A stretch of DNA of 64,000 nt from Candidatus Omnitrophota bacterium (GCA_030650275.1 JAUSEK010000012.1:472-64471); one strand, 5' to 3'. Shown: positions 6,250 through 64,000, numbered from the stretch's first letter. The notes: generated by a model not told the origin, from the letters alone. Program-made: numbers and translations.

Positions 6250-6369
6250 AAACCGGTAACGTTCTACTCTCCCATGGCCATGTGACCACAGTACCATCGA
6301 CCTCGGTGGGCTTAACTTCCGTATTCGGAATGGGAACGGGTGTAACACCACCAGTAAAGTTACCGGAAG
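6250..6369 (-). rRNA. rrf: 5S ribosomal RNA
   Basis: The reverse complement matches the 5S consensus (CCGAAUACGGAAGUUAAGC and GAGAGUAG motifs). About 120 nt. Confidence 0.85.
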
Positions 6370-6424
6370 ATCAAATGACAATTGCGGAATAAAGGGAAGC
6401 ACAAAACCGTAAAAATTAAAAATG

Positions 6425-9400
<2,976 letters not shown>

Positions 9401-9542
9401 CAGGGCGCGAGAAACCCCCGGCCAAGAAAAAACACTCGGCATTGCACTACCCTTTATTCCACAATTGTCAAAGAGCTACTCTGCCGGAAGCCGTTGCCGC
9501 CGGCAGAAAAATATGCTCACAACCGATCGTCCGAGAAATATC

Positions 9543-9618
9543 TGGTGGAGCCGAGGAGGATCGAACTCCTGACCCCCTGCTTGCAAAGCAGGCGCTCTCC
9601 CAGCTGAGCTACGGCCCC
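9543..9618 (-). tRNA. tRNA-Ala (UGC)
   Basis: Reverse complement gives a canonical cloverleaf with the G3:U70 Ala identity pair and anticodon UGC. CCA is encoded. Sits in the 16S-23S spacer. Confidence 0.9.
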
Positions 9619-9633
9619 GAAGGGCTTATCGTA

Positions 9634-9710
9634 TGGTGGGCCCGAGGGGAGTCGAACCACTGACCTCGTCCTTATCAGGGACGCGCTCTAACCAACTGAG
9701 CTACGGGCCC
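9634..9710 (-). tRNA. tRNA-Ile (GAU)
   Basis: Reverse complement GGGCCCGUAGCUCAGUUGGUUAGAGCGCGUCCCUGAUAAGGACGAGGUCAGUGGUUCGACUCCCCUCGGGCCCACCA, anticodon GAU. Spacer tRNA. Confidence 0.9.
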
Positions 9711-9728
9711 ATAAAAGTCAGTGGTAGA

Positions 9729-9812
9729 AATTATGGGGACGTAAGACAAAGGTAGCACCTACCTTTTTATAAGAAGGTAGGTGCTACCTTTGTAGCCTTA
9801 GTCCCCATAATT
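9729..9812. repeat. near-perfect 84-nt palindromic hairpin in the 16S-tRNA spacer, with AATTATGGGGAC terminal inverted repeats
   Basis: A perfect 18-bp inner stem (ACAAAGGTAGCACCTACC / GGTAGGTGCTACCTTTGT) is flanked by an outer stem AATTATGGGGAC / GTCCCCATAATT. The same termini flank a second element at 24303-24374. Confidence 0.6.
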
Positions 9813-9922
9813 CTTACCAAATATAAAAAGCCAAGTCATTCTCAAAGAGAGATTCTGTCAATAAACTGCCATCCTCTCAAAGAAGGACTTACCACATTTT
9901 CTCTACCCTATCATAAGAATAG

Positions 9923-11466
<1,544 letters not shown>

Positions 11467-11517
11467 ATAACTTGGCTTTTTTGTAAACTTTGGCTAATTG
11501 AATTGAATCGGACAATC

Positions 11518-15481: not shown

Positions 15482-15555
15482 GCCCCGGTGGTGTAATGGA
15501 TCAGCATGCAGCTCTGGCGATGTCTGAGGCGCGGGTTCGAATCCCGCCTGGGGTA
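15482..15555 (+). tRNA. tRNA-like gene with aberrant D/anticodon region (isotype undetermined, possible pseudo-tRNA or tRNA-like sRNA)
   Basis: 7-bp acceptor stem (GCCCCGG/CUGGGGU), a perfect T-arm GCGGG-UUCGAAU-CCCGC and a discriminator A. Positions 8-49 do not fold into canonical D and anticodon arms. Instead they form one 7-bp bulged hairpin with a 12-nt loop GCAGCUCUGGCG. Confidence 0.5.
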
Positions 15556-15558
15556 CTA

Positions 15559-56717: not shown

Positions 56718-58442
56718 TTACCATATTTGGCACTGCAGTGTCAGGCTCAATGTTGAATTTCCAGAACCCGCGGTGGGCTTGTTTCCCACCGCCTGGGCCC
56801 AGTCCATCCTCAGGTAAGTATGATCGGTCAAACGCAGCCGCACCCCTCCACCAACCCCTATTAACGTTTTTTCACGCTTTTCGCCGGGAAGAGTTTTCTT
56901 CAACCAGCCGCCGCCGGCATCAAAAAAGATCACCGGTTCTATCTGGGAGCGCAAGGTTTTTCCGGATTTGAGCATCTTCCAGTCCTCCGGGATAAAATAG
57001 GCCGGAAAATACCAATCTAAATTGACAAAGCCTCCCTCATCCGCAAGATAATCTCCTTCCGGATAACCCCGGATGGAATCCGCTCCTCCTAATTGCAGCT
57101 GCTCGGAAGACGTCAAGGTATGAGAAGCGGCCTGACCATGCGAACGTATCGAAAGGACCCCCACCGGCATTCTTTGCGTACGGTTCAACCCCTGATCATA
57201 TTTAAAAAAACCTCCGCCGGTTTTAGCGCGGCTGGCCGAGGGATGGTTCTCGGAGGATGCCCCCAAAAAATTGCTGGTCCCGAACGTAAAGCGCGGACTA
57301 AATTCCGTTTTACCCTGCCAGGGATCGATCTTGGTAAAATTAAAACCGAAATAAGGAAGCCGCAATTGATCATCCGATGTGGTTGTGCCCAAGGTTTTCT
57401 TTTTGATGGATTTGATCTCGATCCCGCTCTGGGCGCTGGCCTGAAAATCCTCACGCAACGCCAGTTCCCACGAAAAATGCGGATCGTAAATCTGCGAATG
57501 CCCGGTGATGTCCAGCGATTTAAAGTCCTTGCCTAACTTCATATCAAAATCAACAATGCTCATACCAAACTTGGTGCCGTAGGTGCCGACAGGGGTCTCA
57601 TAACTGATCATCTTACCCGACGATAAGGAACTGAAAATGGTGTACACGTAAAGAGAATCAAGGCGGCCGGTGATATTGGCATTCCCCCACCAGACTGATT
57701 CACGGTATTTCCCTGTCAGGCGTGTCCCCTGATTATCAAAACCGATGCCCAAATGGTCAGGCCGTTTTTCTTCGATCTTTAACGTGACATCCGAGGTCTG
57801 CGGCTGCCGGCCGGCGCCAATAACTGCCCTCACAGCCAGGATAGAATTCTTGCTGAGCCGTAACAGGTCCCTCTGCATTGTCTTAAAATTCAAAAGCTCA
57901 TTTTTCTTTATATGAAAATAGCGTTCAAACAGCCCCCGAGAAACCGATTTATTTCCTTCTATCGTTAAATCTCCCATCTTACCTTCAAAAACCCGGATCT
58001 CAAGTTTTCCGTTCTGGATATTCTGTTCGGGCAGTCGCACGATCGTGGTCAAATAACCTTTTTTCTTATACGCCTCCTTGATCCTGTCGATCACGGCATT
58101 GATTTCCTTGGCGGTCACTGTTTGATCAAGATAGGCCTTATAAGCAGAAAGAAAAACTTGCGGTTTAAAAAGCGTCATTCCGGTAATGTTCACTTCTTTG
58201 AGCACAAAAACAACGCCTGCCCCCTGCAAAGCCCCCTGCTCTTTTTCCTCCTGGATCGGCGGCATCTTGATCACTGCTTTTTCCAGTTGTTTTTTTCTCT
58301 TTTGACTTTCTTCCTGGACACGCTCCACCTGGGCCCCCGGTTCCTGTCCTGAAGGAGGATCATCAGCCCAAATCCTCTGGCTGGGAAAAAGAAGATAAAA
58401 AATTAAGAATGCTGTCGCGTATTTATATATAAATTTGACCAT
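56718..58442 (-). CDS. TpsB transporter (ShlB/FhaC/HecB family, POTRA plus 16-strand barrel)
   Basis: 574-aa ORF with a signal peptide, POTRA-like region and C-terminal barrel ending in an aromatic residue. Lies immediately upstream of tpsA on the same strand. Confidence 0.85.
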   Translation of the reverse strand: MVKFIYKYATAFLIFYLLFPSQRIWADDPPSGQEPGAQVERVQEESQKRKKQLEKAVIKMPPIQEEKEQGALQGAGVVFVLKEVNITGMTLFKPQVFLSAYKAYLDQTVTAKEINAVIDRIKEAYKKKGYLTTIVRLPEQNIQNGKLEIRVFEGKMGDLTIEGNKSVSRGLFERYFHIKKNELLNFKTMQRDLLRLSKNSILAVRAVIGAGRQPQTSDVTLKIEEKRPDHLGIGFDNQGTRLTGKYRESVWWGNANITGRLDSLYVYTIFSSLSSGKMISYETPVGTYGTKFGMSIVDFDMKLGKDFKSLDITGHSQIYDPHFSWELALREDFQASAQSGIEIKSIKKKTLGTTTSDDQLRLPYFGFNFTKIDPWQGKTEFSPRFTFGTSNFLGASSENHPSASRAKTGGGFFKYDQGLNRTQRMPVGVLSIRSHGQAASHTLTSSEQLQLGGADSIRGYPEGDYLADEGGFVNLDWYFPAYFIPEDWKMLKSGKTLRSQIEPVIFFDAGGGWLKKTLPGEKREKTLIGVGGGVRLRLTDHTYLRMDWAQAVGNKPTAGSGNSTLSLTLQCQIW

Positions 58443-60213: not shown

Positions 60214-60353
60214 GCCGCACTCATTTCCATAGTAATGCCCAGAACGGTGATCGGTCGCTTATTTTTATATAATAGCCCACTGACCCTTTTATGTCCAACT
60301 GATTGCTAAAATCACCGAGTATGATATACTTCAATTAAATCAATGGAGGACAT

Positions 60354-60566
60354 ATGACCATAAAAAGCATAGAAAAAAATATTTTGCAATTACCGCCGAA
60401 GGAACGTATCCATATCGTTGAGCATGTATTGGCCAGCTTAAATACCCCTGATCAAAAAATAGAAAAATTATGGGTTGCTGAATCTGAAAAAAGATATGCT
60501 GCCTATAAATCCGGAAAAATTAAACCCATCAGCCTGCAAAGCATTAAAAAACGCTTCGCGCGATGA
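60354..60566 (+). CDS. type II antitoxin (putative addiction-module component family paired with RelE/ParE toxins)
   Basis: 70-aa ORF with LPPKERIHIVEHVLASL...KLWVAESEKRYAAYKSGK, matching the short antitoxins that precede ParE/RelE toxins. 4-nt overlap with the toxin gene. Confidence 0.7.
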   Translation: MTIKSIEKNILQLPPKERIHIVEHVLASLNTPDQKIEKLWVAESEKRYAAYKSGKIKPISLQSIKKRFAR

Positions 60567-60853
60567 ATATTATTTTTCTTCCCCCCTCTGATCAAGAGCT
60601 CCTTGAGGCCATTGAATTCTACGAACTTCAACTTCCTGGGCTTGGGTATGCTTTCACTGAAGAATTCTTTGAAACATTGGAATTCATTCGGAAATTCCCA
60701 AACGGATGGCAAAAAGTCAGTCGCCATACCCATAAATGTCCATTGCGTAGGTTCCCTTATCTAATTCTTTACGCTGTCGAAGAAATTCAAATAGTCATCA
60801 CCGCTGTTGCCCATCAACACAGACGCCCATCTTCCTACCTTGACCGTAAATAA
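60563..60853 (+). CDS. RelE/ParE-family toxin
   Basis: 96-aa ORF with a RelE/ParE-fold pattern and C-terminal basic residues. AT-rich coding sequence. Confidence 0.75.
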   Translation: MNIIFLPPSDQELLEAIEFYELQLPGLGYAFTEEFFETLEFIRKFPNGWQKVSRHTHKCPLRRFPYLILYAVEEIQIVITAVAHQHRRPSSYLDRK

Positions 60854-60880
60854 AAACGGGGGAGTTTTTTCAACAAAAAA

Positions 60881-60917
60881 GCCCCGAACTAAAAAAGTTC
60901 AGGGCTTTCTCTAATAA
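60881..60917 (+). terminator. intrinsic terminator with nested inverted repeats
   Basis: GCCCCGAAC-TAAAAAA-GTTCAGGGC followed by TTTCTCT, nested inside the outer inverted repeat GGGGGAGTTTTTT / AAAAAACTCCCC. Confidence 0.5.
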
Positions 60918-60972
60918 AAAACTCCCCGGGGTTGACACAAAACGCATAGTACGCAAGCTGGCGCAACATAAT

Positions 60973-61371
60973 GTGGTTCAACTACTTGTGAAAATGTATA
61001 AATATCCGGGAAGAGGCACAACCATCGTTTTTGACCAACCTTTGGCCGCCCGTAAACTCCCTCCGCCAAAAACACTCAAGAATCTTATCACGGAAGCGAT
61101 GAAATTTCACGATTATTTAGCCGAAGATACTCAAAGAACATTTTTTGATGCCAGCCGCGAATTCAAGGTCACTCGGTCTTGGATATCCCAGCTGATGAAG
61201 ATAGCCAATGCCCTGCCAACCAACTTCCTCAAAGACATGAAATCCTGCACCGATCAAACTACCATCAAACGCTTTTCCGGCAAGACCCTAATGCACATCG
61301 CGAAACTCAAAACCCCTCAAGAACGGCAAACCACTATCAATAACTTATTAAGCGACTCCGCTTCAATATGA
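60973..61371 (+). CDS. hypothetical protein with a ParB/KorB-like HTH (lacks the N-terminal ParB/Srx domain)
   Basis: 132-aa ORF; FKVTRSWISQLMKIANALP resembles the ParB HTH. Low GC. Confidence 0.4.
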   Translation: MVQLLVKMYKYPGRGTTIVFDQPLAARKLPPPKTLKNLITEAMKFHDYLAEDTQRTFFDASREFKVTRSWISQLMKIANALPTNFLKDMKSCTDQTTIKRFSGKTLMHIAKLKTPQERQTTINNLLSDSASI

Positions 61372-61498
61372 GTCCGACTTAAGACTTGGGTATAATCTTC
61401 TGACCACCCTATCTGACCACCTGCCTGATCTTTCAAGACCGTGCTTTTTCAACCCATAGCTAATCGTGCCATAATCATGCCACAATCGCGCCTTTATA

Positions 61499-61531
61499 CC
61501 TGACGCAAATCTGACGCAAATCTGACGCAAG
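61499..61531. repeat. three tandem 11-bp direct repeats (CTGACGCAAAT)
   Basis: CTGACGCAAATCTGACGCAAATCTGACGCAAG. Nearby duplicated TCTGACCACC motifs at 61411-61434. Confidence 0.6.
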
Positions 61532-61534
61532 CTT

Positions 61535-62908
61535 TTAGCTGTTTTTTAAAATATAATGCGTAGTTTTCCCTACACCCTGTTTTTTGATAATCTTTAAACC
61601 TATCAACCGCTTTAATAATTGATTAGCAGTTTCACGGGTTATCTTAAACATCTTTTGAATCTCTCCGCTACCAATCTGTTTATTAGCAACTATATGCTCG
61701 ATAACCTTACTTTCTCTCTCAGTTAAACTAAATTGTGTTAGATATCCTTCTGTGATCTTTGTCTTTCGTAACGTAACGACAATGCTACTTCCAGCGTATT
61801 CAAATTCCGGCTCTGGCAATCCCCATTCCTTACACCATGAAATTATTTTATTAGTTCCTGTTCCAACCTCTTCAGCATATCCAATCCGGAAAAATGCTGT
61901 GGCAATTGAAGGATTTACCGGTTTTGATTCATGCGTTTGTTTTAATGTTGCCGTAGTCCAACCTTGCGGCAGATGTCCCGGATTCCAGAACTCCATACGG
62001 TCATCAAATATCCTGATCTGTACTTTTGAAGTGGTTCTATAGTCTCGGTGTGCCAAAGCATTTGATAATATTTCTCTAATAGCTTTGGGCGGATACAGCC
62101 ATTTTTCCTGCCGTTCTAATTTTCCCGATTCAATCCATGCACGCATTGGAATATGATCAAAAATAAATTTTTCTGCTTCCTTTACAAGTCTGATGACATC
62201 TGCGTTGACTGGCTTTAAATCTATCATTTCCCCCGCTACATCCACTCCTTTAAACCTGATGCATTTTACTTCCAACTGTTCAAAAAACTTTTCTGGATTT
62301 TTTCCAAACAAAAGAACCGCACCATTAGTCAGCTTACCGTTATTAAGCAACTTAAGCTGTGTTAATATCGCTTTCAGCGATCCATTCTCGTCAACATCAA
62401 GGTCACGTTTCTTTTTGGCAGACAATACAAAATTCTTAACTTTTGTAATATCAATATCTGTTAACGACGATCCTTTGCAAATTTCATTATCAAAATGATG
62501 CGATTCTTTGTATTTTTCCAGAATCAACCCTTCGTATTCATCCTTGCCCATCTGCCGGGTTGAGGGCCCCACACGCTTATACGGCCTACCATCCGCCAAG
62601 ACCAATTTATCTTTGGACTGTTTAACCTCAATGACAATTATTTGTTTACCTTTAATCTTTTTCACAGTGATCTTCGGCTGGATTCTTGGATCCGTGTGCT
62701 GGGCAATACGATTGACTAAATCTTCAACAGTGCCTTTGCCGATCTGAACACCCTGAACCTCTCCAGTCTTTGATACGCCCACAAGCAACCGCCCACCCTC
62801 GGTATTAGCGAAGGCCGTTATACTTTCAACGATCTCATGAATTTGAGACAGTGACGGCTTCCATTCAATTATCGTTGATTCACTAGAACCAATTAATTTT
62901 AATGACAT
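61535..62908 (-). CDS. AlbA_2 (Schlafen-like) / HATPase_c_4 / C-terminal HTH protein (often mis-annotated as a RecG-like or ATP-dependent DNA helicase-related transcriptional regulator)
   Basis: 457-aa ORF with an N-terminal ESxxxEWK...AFANTxGGxLxxGV AlbA_2 signature, a central ATPase-like region and a C-terminal winged HTH. AT-rich. Confidence 0.7.
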   Translation of the reverse strand: MSLKLIGSSESTIIEWKPSLSQIHEIVESITAFANTEGGRLLVGVSKTGEVQGVQIGKGTVEDLVNRIAQHTDPRIQPKITVKKIKGKQIIVIEVKQSKDKLVLADGRPYKRVGPSTRQMGKDEYEGLILEKYKESHHFDNEICKGSSLTDIDITKVKNFVLSAKKKRDLDVDENGSLKAILTQLKLLNNGKLTNGAVLLFGKNPEKFFEQLEVKCIRFKGVDVAGEMIDLKPVNADVIRLVKEAEKFIFDHIPMRAWIESGKLERQEKWLYPPKAIREILSNALAHRDYRTTSKVQIRIFDDRMEFWNPGHLPQGWTTATLKQTHESKPVNPSIATAFFRIGYAEEVGTGTNKIISWCKEWGLPEPEFEYAGSSIVVTLRKTKITEGYLTQFSLTERESKVIEHIVANKQIGSGEIQKMFKITRETANQLLKRLIGLKIIKKQGVGKTTHYILKNS

Positions 62909-63031
62909 TATGCCCCCTACCCGCTTTAACCTCGGCGGTGAATTTCTTGAATTCGATTGTTTCGGATTCTTTATGCATTAGATTTCCTAATTTACCCGTA
63001 AATTATGTTACACGTCTATGATCATATTTTA

Positions 63032-63868
63032 TTACTTTTTTGTTCGAAGAACTAAAATGCTATCATCCATAAGAACTACACCTGCTGGCTCTCCACGCAT
63101 AACTGCAATCTTATTCCATATCCACTTATCTTCAATGCCTGCAATCTTTTTCTTTCCCTTCATTCGAATTCCATAAACAGTCCATCCTGCATCTTTTAGA
63201 ACTTCGAGCGTTTTTGAAATACCCACTACTGATCGCATTTGATCAGGAACCTCTATATCATCCCAAATATCACCCAAATCACGCAATTCTTGAATAAAAC
63301 CGCCCACAAGATCAATTTCTAAATCGCTATTTGGTTCATCATTAAAAAAATACGAAAAATGACAACCGATTACAACGTCAACAATTTCTCTACCAGTGGT
63401 TAATCGAGGCATTACGACCATCCGCTTCTGCCATGCTTCCAGTATTCCGGGCTTAATTACTTCGATCAGTTTGGGCACAACAATATTAATACCATCTTCC
63501 CATTTACAAGCTATCCGATCCGCTAAAATATGCGAAGAAGATCGGACATTCTTTTCATCAATCCCAACCCAAACAGGAAGAATGACTTTCTCTCCGTTCA
63601 CTTCTTTTTGCGCCAATCCGTCTAATTCAAGATTTGTATAATGTTTATCAAAGAAAGCTGTTGATAAAATCACTATGCCATACCGGCTTTTATTCAAGCC
63701 ATCGTCTATCTTACGACGAAGACTATCTCCAATCTTTAGATCAAACTGATCAAACCATACACTTATACCCAAAGAAGACAACAGCTGAGCAAGCGGCTTT
63801 GCAACCGTTTCTCGATCTTCTGATGCATAAGAAATAAAAACATCTTTCTCAACTATTGATGAATTCAT
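63032..63868 (-). CDS. TIR-domain protein with an uncharacterised C-terminal domain of about 140 aa
   Basis: 278-aa ORF. The N-terminal DVFISYASEDRE...WFD TIR signature is followed by ILSTAFFDKHYTNLELDGL. About 38% GC. Confidence 0.8.
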   Translation of the reverse strand: MNSSIVEKDVFISYASEDRETVAKPLAQLLSSLGISVWFDQFDLKIGDSLRRKIDDGLNKSRYGIVILSTAFFDKHYTNLELDGLAQKEVNGEKVILPVWVGIDEKNVRSSSHILADRIACKWEDGINIVVPKLIEVIKPGILEAWQKRMVVMPRLTTGREIVDVVIGCHFSYFFNDEPNSDLEIDLVGGFIQELRDLGDIWDDIEVPDQMRSVVGISKTLEVLKDAGWTVYGIRMKGKKKIAGIEDKWIWNKIAVMRGEPAGVVLMDDSILVLRTKK

Positions 63869-64000
63869 AGTTTGCGACTTCAGTTTTCTTATTTGTTAAT
63901 GTCGCAAGAAATCTAATCGTACTCGTGACATGATTAAAAATTAAAAGGCTCTCATTATAATTTAATACCGGATTATCATGAGCCAAACTTTGATTATTTC

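Follow-up and report, generated by a model that had tools for sequence, protein, structure and literature searches.

An AT-rich islet on a Candidatus Omnitrophota chromosome as a probable mosaic of independent defense and addiction modules

General features of the islet

The AT-rich end of the window (the whole 64,000-nt stretch analyzed) was most probably a mosaic defense/addiction islet of independent modules on a Candidatus Omnitrophota chromosome, in which the neighboring TIR and AlbA_2 genes were not partners; we give this reading a probability of about 0.7. The putative modules (Table 1) were ordered as follows: ParE-type toxin-antitoxin (TA) pair plus terminator, orf132, AlbA_2 gene plus 3′ repeat array, TIR gene (TIR-X), AbiJ-type HEPN RNase gene, and AAA_13 gene, and the TIR and AlbA_2 genes would have come to lie side by side through island assembly. 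All these modules would be separately mobile and separately functional, and their role in defense is suggested by domain families and neighbors.

Table 1. Features of the islet, numbered from the first letter of the window
Feature	Position	Strand	Remarks
AT-rich horizontally acquired islet	60230..64000	.	GC and tetranucleotide distance
Antitoxin gene, 70 aa	60354..60566	+	Unstab_antitox PF09720 (E 4.7e-14); TIGR02574 (3.4e-11)
ParE/RelE-superfamily toxin gene, 96 aa	60563..60853	+	ParE_toxin PF05016 (27.4 bits, cutoff 23)
Nested inverted repeat, a GC stem inside a 12-bp outer stem	60859..60927	.	Between ParE gene and orf132
orf132, 132 aa, small conserved protein with HTH-like segment	60973..61371	+	Homologs only
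Two 10-nt copies of TCTGACCACC (GGTGGTCAGA on AlbA_2 strand)	61399..61421	+	Exact
Three tandem 11-nt units: TTGCGTCAGAT, TTGCGTCAGAT, TTGCGTCAGGT	61498..61530	-	Starts 4 nt past AlbA_2 stop
AlbA_2–HATPase_c_4–C-terminal wHTH protein gene, 457 aa	61535..62908	-	Pfam
31-codon ORF (MHKESETIEFKKFTAEVKA...)	62883..62978	-	Like N-terminus of different AlbA_2 subclade
TIR gene (TIR-X)	63032..63868	-	TIR_2 (E 9.8e-22) at residues 10–105, then ~140 unannotated residues
Domain X of TIR-X, residues 140–278	63035..63451	-	Alpha/beta, confidently predicted
TIR domain of TIR-X, residues about 8–138	63455..63847	-	AbTir/TcpB-type
3′ end of AbiJ-type HEPN gene (Abi_C, 263 aa)	63849..64000	-	Whole gene: window-equivalent 63849–64640, L002 515–1306

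Foreign composition and extent

The GC content dropped at ~60.23 kb, from 51.6% at positions 1–60229 to 39.5% at positions 60230–64000 (same-size windows elsewhere in the stretch had a standard deviation of 1.6% and a minimum of 46.8%), and the tetranucleotide L1 distance of the AT-rich end was 0.42 compared to 0.18 ± 0.06. The GC drop had been pointed out in a sequence-only reading of this DNA and was borne out, and its description of a compositionally foreign accessory island with candidate defense genes and a ParE-type TA pair was supported; the TA pair, the nested hairpin, the three 11-nt and two 10-nt repeats, and the TIR and AlbA_2 genes were all found where it had placed them. The left boundary of the islet adjoined a DoxX-like/MFS/ShlB chromosomal block. 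At the other side the islet ran at least 1155 nt past the window in Logan contig L002 (37.7% GC in the added part), which confirmed the suggested continuation beyond the window edge.

TA pair and orf132

The TA pair had the organization of ParDE-like type II systems: a small antitoxin gene overlapped the gene of a ParE/RelE-fold toxin (4 nt shared between antitoxin stop and toxin start), and both products had Pfam matches above cutoff. The nested inverted repeat behind it had 32-nt arms with 78% complementarity, and the segment 60850–60935 gave an RNA fold with a dG of -35.9 kcal/mol (z -6.0) and only sub-threshold matches to Rfam; this hairpin was probably the terminator of the TA operon.

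The product of orf132 had homologs (1e-19 to 1e-22) in L083–L086 and L088, and it had no match in Pfam, NCBIfam, PDB, or 72,556 plasmids. The "ParB-like HTH" ascribed to it earlier was a resemblance seen by eye. At the closest TIR-X loci, an orf132 homolog was located directly convergent to the TIR-X gene.

AlbA_2 gene and its 3′ repeats

The AlbA_2 protein displayed the domains of its class in canonical order and above cutoff, SLFN_AlbA_2 (E 3.9e-24; 85.9 bits, cutoff 25.3) and HATPase_c_4 (E 1.2e-23; 83.4 bits, cutoff 26), plus a weak wHTH match at its C-terminus. It was a full-length member of a family with 1264 homologs at E ≤ 1e-10, some being 55–85% identical; one homolog (85% identity) was solitary beside a glutamyl-tRNA-synthetase-family (tRNA-synt_1c) gene, and another (71% identity) was solitary within a polysaccharide cluster. 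Judged by these homologs, the AlbA_2–HATPase_c_4–wHTH gene is of a stand-alone, widely distributed type.

Two kinds of short repeats lay on the 3′ side of this gene and had a GTCAGA core in common: (i) the 10-nt TCTGACCACC, with two exact copies versus 0.05 expected, and (ii) the triple array, whose CTGACGCAAAT-type 11-mer occurred six times in the window when up to one mismatch was allowed, versus 1.2 expected, and which gave no significant RNA fold (z -1.3). An equivalent triple array was present after AlbA_2 homologs in L169 (TTGCGTCAGGT three times) and L177/L178 (TTTACGTCAGA three times). The array trailed the stop codon of close AlbA_2 homologs in two unrelated genomic contexts, and it was therefore assigned to the AlbA_2 gene itself; on this comparison of loci it is a gene-linked 3′ element and not a replicon iteron. 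The array could also be a site for the wHTH of the AlbA_2 protein, a suggestion that we put forward tentatively and hold to be on the unlikely side.

Under a different explanation, the islet would be what is left of a plasmid or ICE that had integrated, with the repeats as iterons or centromere-like sites, orf132 as a ParB-like partition or regulatory gene, and the ParE pair as an addiction module. It would fit with the presence of the TA pair, the foreign composition, the HTH-like segment seen by eye in orf132, and the 11-nt direct repeats, which stand in tandem with helical spacing and resemble parC- or iteron-type arrays. However, Rep, ParA, relaxase, and integrase genes were absent from the visible part of the islet, and profile searches of the window genes detected no Rep, ParA, or ParB families; the contig of the islet carried a full 5S-23S-16S rRNA operon (positions 6251–11467) together with tRNA-Ile/Ala, and the islet is therefore chromosomal rather than plasmid-like; moreover, orf132 was without plasmid, Pfam, or PDB matches, and the repeat array was kept behind AlbA_2 homologs in unrelated, non-plasmid chromosomal contexts. 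The earlier "plasmid-like" and "iteron-like" labels had to be dropped on these points, and a plasmid or ICE origin was the least probable of the explanations considered here.

Independent occurrence of TIR-X and the AlbA_2 gene

The TIR-X and AlbA_2 genes were co-directional on the minus strand, and what had been described as a "convergent two-gene unit" was convergent only relative to orf132. They were separated by a 123-nt spacer, in which neither a terminator nor a sigma-70-like promoter was detected, and they may be co-transcribed in this islet. The sequence-only reading had proposed a new abortive-infection system of these two genes, in which the TIR protein would generate a signal or act as an NADase and the AlbA_2 protein would be its nucleic-acid-targeting partner. 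Such a system would agree with this adjacency and the lack of a predicted terminator, with the occurrence of both domain types in defense systems (PADLOC matches), and with one protein (P0411) that fused AlbA_2 to domain X, a faint functional link. It would further agree with the 31-codon ORF of the spacer, which had no Pfam match and shared 72% identity over 18 aa with the N-terminus of P0156 (E 0.03 in a 120-sequence set); this ORF might possibly, on this faint similarity, be the remnant of a replaced AlbA_2 gene, in which case an AlbA_2-type gene would have adjoined TIR-X before the present allele.

Co-occurrence argued against this proposal. The sampled contexts comprised ~22 full-length TIR-X, two independent AlbA_2, and four Abi_C genes, a sample rather than a census of ~4800 family members. 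At none of the 21 other full-length TIR-X loci did the retrieved flanking sequence (6–8 kb at most) contain an AlbA_2 gene; these loci displayed instead OLD plus UvrD, HNH, ResIII helicase, phage tape-measure, AbiJ_NTD3, or HEPN_LA2681 neighbors, or no co-directional gene upstream. An AlbA_2 homolog was found by phmmer at a single one of the 166 loci with TIR relatives; it lay on the other strand, divergent to a TIR-only relative and at a distance of 2 kb. Close AlbA_2 homologs were solitary among housekeeping genes, and nucleotide identity ended at the gene borders (75–78% for the TIR gene; 82% for the AlbA_2 gene plus 73 nt of its 3′ flank). In addition, the orf132 homolog came directly after TIR-X in the closest relatives, and the AlbA_2 gene thus looked like an insertion between them. 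The sequence-only reading had itself named independent occurrence in unrelated neighborhoods as the finding that would count against a TIR plus AlbA_2 module; because the genes occurred in just that way, the new module was not supported, and we consider it highly improbable. The pairing, which that reading had not recognized as a named system, matched no catalogued PADLOC system, and the TIR matches covered the TIR domain only and were unaccompanied by ThsA.

TIR-X and the genes upstream

TIR-X had the fold of catalytic TIR NADases of the AbTir type. Its residues E81, G47, and S49 aligned with AbTir E208, G174, and S176 (catalytic Glu and BB-loop Gly/Ser), Y77 supplied an aromatic residue at the position of AbTir W204, four upstream of the catalytic Glu, and E81 and G47 were invariant among 86 homologs; the N-terminal part is a predicted AbTir-like NADase domain. 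Domain X had no match in Pfam, PADLOC, PDB, or BFVD, and was confidently predicted to be an alpha/beta domain. It was found elsewhere behind HNH nuclease, Xre-HTH, Pycsar-type TIR, and AlbA_2 domains, and fusions of AbiJ_NTD3 or AbiJ_NTD4 to TIR-X were observed as well.

The HEPN gene upstream, most of which lay past the window edge and out of sight of the sequence-only reading, had a Pfam Abi_C match (3.4e-13; 50 bits, cutoff 24), and its product contained RNNQSLAH, an Rx6H form of the Rx4-6H motif, with R214 and H221 invariant; residues 1–175 had no Pfam match, AbiJ-NTD1–5 included. A PrrC/RloC-like AAA_13 ATPase gene (PADLOC PDC-S06-like) was present farther upstream on L002.

The last 20 nt of the HEPN gene overlapped the TIR-X start, and these two genes might accordingly be read as a translationally coupled module, TIR-X being more generally an add-on executioner at the 3′ end of defense operons. 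Similar arrangements elsewhere were consistent with this: the closest TIR-X homologs were the third gene after a Gabija-like OLD plus UvrD pair and overlapped the UvrD/GajB-like stop by 8 nt (three distinct proteins, six contigs), TIR-X overlapped an HNH gene by 16 nt in L009 and lay 11 nt past a ResIII helicase gene in L012, an AbiJ_NTD3 protein was encoded upstream in L090, and the AbiJ_NTD3/NTD4 fusions had parallels in published AbiJ-NTD–TIR fusions (PMC3710099). But TIR-X had no co-directional upstream partner in L004, L007, L091, and L174, a TIR neighbor stood beside none of the examined Abi_C homologs, and gene overlap is common in compact islands without functional dependence. Moreover, phmmer found no Abi_C homolog at the 166 loci with TIR relatives, and Abi_C homologs at 58–72% identity had different neighbors, the closest one (72%) being followed by a DUF7662 gene. 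A dedicated HEPN plus TIR-X module was thus judged doubtful.

We also propose, with low confidence, that TIR-X would be a portable NADase executioner with X as a new sensor/assembly module. If true, translational coupling would repeatedly have added TIR-X at the 3′ end of defense operons unrelated to one another (hosts: AbiJ-like HEPN here, Gabija-like OLD plus UvrD in the closest relatives, and HNH elsewhere), where it would act as a second-layer effector.

In the mosaic islet of independent modules, TIR-X would be co-expressed with the upstream HEPN gene, and X would serve as a sensor or assembly domain; an infection cue would act through X to drive TIR oligomerization, the resulting composite active sites would hydrolyze NAD+, and NAD+ depletion of the cell would abort infection. 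Signaling by TIR-X to a ThsA-like receptor was less likely because none was encoded nearby.

Comparison with known systems

The AlbA_2/Schlafen–HATPase_c_4–wHTH proteins, annotated as "ATP-dependent DNA helicase RecG", are COG2865-type, and the copy in the window differed from them only by its position. AbTir has an N-terminal coiled-coil region, whereas TIR-X had its TIR domain N-terminal followed by domain X, with an NADase activity predicted from sequence; the TIR domain aligned over 119 residues (E 4.7e-38) with AbTir/TcpB/PdTir-type NADases (PDB 7UWG, 8G83, 4LQC, and 3H16).

With regard to Thoeris, the TIR part alone matched the ThsB profile PDLC00417 (4.1e-32), and no ThsA (SIR2/SLOG or Macro-TM) was present in the islet or in the annotated neighborhoods of close homologs. 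Among the PADLOC profiles, PDC-S66 scored highest, with 171 bits over the TIR domain, but only its positions 147–262 of 282 aligned, to TIR-X residues 6–121, short of a full-length match; PDC-S66 had the opposite architecture (N-terminal domain, then TIR) and probably represented DUF1883-TIR proteins common on plasmids, and plasmid DUF1883 proteins covered ≤59% of the TIR-X query. The Gabija genes gajA (OLD ATPase-TOPRIM) and gajB (UvrD) were absent from the visible islet and occurred only beside TIR-X homologs elsewhere; a Gabija plus TIR trio was not found in a literature search.

AbiJ-NTD domains are fused interchangeably to HEPN or TIR (PMC3710099). The upstream gene resembled AbiJ, of the lactococcal HEPN abortive-infection family, in being Abi_C/HEPN with Rx6H, but the N-terminal 175 residues of its product matched no AbiJ-NTD model and the gene was separate from TIR.

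In Bacillus subtilis, the abortive-infection protein SpbK is a TIR NADase encoded by a single gene, and it interacts with YonE of phage SPbeta (PMC12847820). TIR-X differed from SpbK in having no sequence relation to it beyond the TIR domain and in being coupled here to the HEPN gene; like SpbK, many TIR-X genes stand alone.

Composition and chromosomal setting of the islet

The islet (60230-64000) displayed a GC content of 39.5% vs. 51.6% in the remainder of the window (same-size windows elsewhere: sd 1.6%, minimum 46.8%) and a tetranucleotide distance to background of 0.42 vs. 0.18 +/- 0.06, and hence the GC drop claimed in the sequence-only reading was a real compositional break. The toxin-antitoxin (TA) pair, hairpin, repeats, and TIR and AlbA_2 genes named in that reading were likewise all in place, and the islet continued past the window edge as had been proposed: L002, a Logan contig identical to the window (window = 65155 - L002 coordinate), added 1155 nt with a GC content of 37.7%. 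Rfam searches (gathering and E-value modes) gave rRNA and tRNA only, besides sub-threshold matches at the hairpin.

Features of the islet in window coordinates
Feature	Position	Strand	Remark
Unstab_antitox gene	60354-60566		4-nt overlap with ParE_toxin gene
ParE_toxin gene	60563-60853
Nested hairpin	60859-60927		dG -35.9 kcal/mol, z -6.0
orf132 (132-aa ORF)	60973-61371	+
Two TCTGACCACC copies	61399-61421		0.05 expected
Three tandem 11-mers	61498-61530
AlbA_2 + HATPase_c_4 + wHTH gene	61535-62908	-
TIR_2 gene	63032-63868	-

The window contained a complete 5S-23S-tRNA-Ala/Ile-16S operon (6251-11467), and therefore the replicon was a chromosome; the islet was bordered by MFS, DoxX-like, and ShlB/FhaC genes of ordinary kind. 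This operon, together with the failure to find Rep, ParA, relaxase, or integrase in the visible part of the islet, spoke against the plasmid-like island proposed from sequence alone; a plasmid or ICE remnant, every defining gene of which was absent from that visible part, was very improbable. The locus was an ordinary mosaic defense islet, in which AlbA_2-HATPase_c_4-wHTH, the AAA_13 ATPase (see below), and the ParE pair were separate modules. On the chromosomal side, the gene of a ShlB/FhaC-type two-partner-secretion transporter (56718-58442, minus strand) adjoined a gene (L002 8574-12941) whose product, at least 1456 aa long, was probably the exoprotein cargo of this transporter. An ARAGORN tRNA call at 15482-15556 (plus strand; Rfam tRNA score 46 bits) had an unassigned four-base anticodon (ggcg) and could be unusual or miscalled.

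TIR-X and its C-terminal domain

TIR-X, the TIR protein of the islet, belonged to a family of two-domain proteins (4825 matches, ~280 aa; full-length to about 42% identity). E81 of TIR-X aligned with AbTir E208, G47/S49 with G174/S176, and Y77 with W204; in AbTir, E208 is catalytic and W204 is the aromatic residue required for cyclization (10.1101/2022.05.07.491051). E81 and G47 were invariant across 86 homologs, and TIR-X was therefore predicted to be an active NADase.

The C-terminal domain X was a confidently folded domain with no Pfam model and no match in any library searched, and it was found in 334 clusters at 50% identity in an exhaustive HMMER search. Among 142 scanned X-domain matches (P0361-P0502), Xre-type HTH was present in 38 and HNH_2 nuclease domain in 34, each located N-terminal to X in the individually examined members (Xre-HTH-X about 220 aa; HNH_2-X about 250 aa), and there were three single fusions: Pycsar-type TIR PCTIR-X (P0488), DUF2513-TIR-X (P0384), and AlbA_2-X (P0411). 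With such varied heads, X therefore had the character of a C-terminal module on effector or DNA-binding heads, as would suit a domain for sensing or assembly. TIR-X relatives also carried fused AbiJ_NTD3, AbiJ_NTD4, or DUF2513, in agreement with the known ability of HEPN and TIR domains to replace one another after an AbiJ N-terminal domain (PMC3710099). Domain X was a candidate new sensor/assembly module for single-protein abortive-infection effectors, in a widespread family (about 4800 matches) whose TIR was AbTir-like.

Independent occurrence of TIR-X and AlbA_2

The loci of TIR relatives (n = 166) were collected from genome and metagenome collections plus exact look-up, and all were searched by profile and phmmer. 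An AlbA_2 homolog was present at only one of them (L109), beside a TIR-only relative, on the other strand and 2 kb off; neighbors were heterogeneous among the 21 loci, not counting the window, at which the TIR-X homolog was full-length. The two close AlbA_2 homologs were solitary: that of 85% identity was flanked by glutamyl-tRNA-synthetase-family (tRNA-synt_1c) and SEC-C-domain genes, and that of 71% identity lay within a polysaccharide cluster. Nucleotide identity to relatives did not extend past the gene borders: it was 75-78% over the TIR gene and 82% over the AlbA_2 gene with 73 nt of its 3' flank, as expected of independently shuffled cassettes. Scans of viral contigs gave one locus for Abi_C (see below), none for AlbA_2, and only TIR-domain-level loci for TIR-X, with no added context and no sign of TIR-X as phage-borne.

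The sequence-only reading had proposed TIR and AlbA_2 as a possible new two-gene system. In favor of it, the two genes were co-directional, one AlbA_2-X fusion existed, and the spacer held a weak candidate for what is left of an earlier AlbA_2 N-terminus; against it, the two genes occurred independently, the outcome that this reading had itself named as its refutation, and were not a conserved pair across the 166 loci, which left such a system very unlikely. The observations of that reading stood, while its interpretation held in part only. The main value of the result was negative, namely the removal of a tempting but false two-gene system.

The spacer between the two genes contained a 31-codon ORF (62883-62978, minus strand) starting MHKESETIEFKKFTAEVKA, without Pfam match; it was like the N-terminus of another AlbA_2 subclade (e.g., P0156) and may have been left behind by an AlbA_2 gene that the present one replaced.

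Triple repeat behind AlbA_2

The 3 x 11-nt array began 4 nt past the AlbA_2 stop codon, and it recurred at the same position behind both close AlbA_2 homologs, as TTGCGTCAGGT x3 in L169 (7388-7418) and TTTACGTCAGA x3 in L177/L178 (L177 about 7413-7445), which with the window made up three unrelated genomic contexts; it was missing behind a distant AlbA_2 homolog. The repeat variants were uniform inside each locus (TTGCGTCAGA/G, TTGCGTCAGG, and TTTACGTCAGA). Its conservation marked the array as a 3' element belonging to this AlbA_2 subclade rather than to a replicon, so that the "iteron-like" label was abandoned. The 11-nt spacing would place three sites on a single DNA face, and binding by the wHTH domain of the AlbA_2 protein itself was a reasonable prediction. 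The TCTGACCACC pair and the triple repeat had a GTCAGA core in common on the same strand. A structured RNA or terminator in the AlbA_2 3' flank was not supported (no significant fold, z -1.3). A second repeat, 2x GCAYGATTA, followed the array in the window and in L169.

Upstream genes and nearest relatives of TIR-X

L002 disclosed two further genes: (i) that of an Abi_C/HEPN protein (263 aa; Pfam 50 bits, cutoff 24; motif RNNQSLAH = Rx6H), with its stop 20 nt within the TIR ORF, and (ii) upstream of it, the C-terminus of an AAA_13 ATPase, which matched PADLOC candidate PDC-S06; hence the TIR gene was not the first in its unit. The minus-strand order was AAA_13, Abi_C, TIR, 123-nt gap, and AlbA_2; orf132 and the TA pair ran toward this array from the opposite side. 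The neighbors of Abi_C homologs (58-72% identity) were unrelated: the nearest homolog (72% identity; L179 2034-2708, L180 1040-1786) was followed by a DUF7662 gene, overlapping in L180, and the neighboring products (DUF7662; 134- and 223-aa proteins) had no relation to TIR-X, X, or Abi_C in profile searches. Downstream partners of the HEPN gene may therefore be variable in this Abi_C family. Most AbiJ-type HEPN homologs (alignment of P0241-P0360) had an acidic C-terminal tail closing D-(D/E)-I-P-F, which we take to resemble the bacterial SSB C-terminal tip; the window's copy, 3'-overlapped by the TIR gene, ended ...ANYEFINS without this tail.

The genes of the three nearest TIR-X proteins (70-74% identity; six contigs, L083-L088) closed a three-gene array that spanned 2135-6846 in L083; ahead of TIR-X came the genes of an OLD/GajA-like ATPase-TOPRIM protein (638-641 aa) and a UvrD/GajB-like helicase (648 aa), and the TIR-X start overlapped the helicase stop by 8 nt. 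In the literature search, this Gabija-like trio with TIR was not found described, and "PDC-S66" was found in genome-survey papers only. The trio would be a testable case of defense systems gaining an extra NAD+-depleting layer in related bacteria.

An orf132 homolog (1e-19 to 1e-22) was next to the trio and convergent in five of the six contigs (L083-L086 and L088; not L087), and therefore the AlbA_2 gene of the window sat between two genes adjacent elsewhere. These homologs (L083 6876-7259; L088 6859-7248) showed 28-33% identity immediately downstream of TIR-X genes 72-74% identical; the adjacency was retained although orf132 diverged much faster than TIR-X. The ParB-like HTH ascribed to orf132 was not substantiated: searches of Pfam, NCBIfam, PDB (sequence and profile), and 72,556 plasmids gave no match to the protein other than a single profile match, to ribosomal uS15, which was spurious.

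The most serious alternative was that Abi_C and TIR-X form a functional pair, or that TIR-X is an add-on to varied defense operons. Recurrent start/stop overlaps argued for it; no Abi_C homolog was present among all ORFs of the 166 TIR-relative loci (profile and phmmer), and this alternative was considered unlikely. What remained new was the unannotated domain X, carried by a widespread family of TIR proteins, together with the OLD+UvrD+TIR-X arrangement of the relatives and the triple repeat linked to the AlbA_2 gene.

Proposed action of TIR-X and comparison with known systems

The established parts of the mechanism were fold, catalytic residues, architecture, and neighborhood variability. 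TIR-X would be a self-contained sensor-effector, which upon infection would oligomerize and deplete NAD+, thereby aborting the infection; in this islet its translation was probably coupled to that of the AbiJ-type HEPN RNase. Because no ThsA-type receptor was present nearby, the proposed action was unlike that of Thoeris, and TIR-X was instead likened to SpbK, a single-protein TIR defense (PMC12847820).
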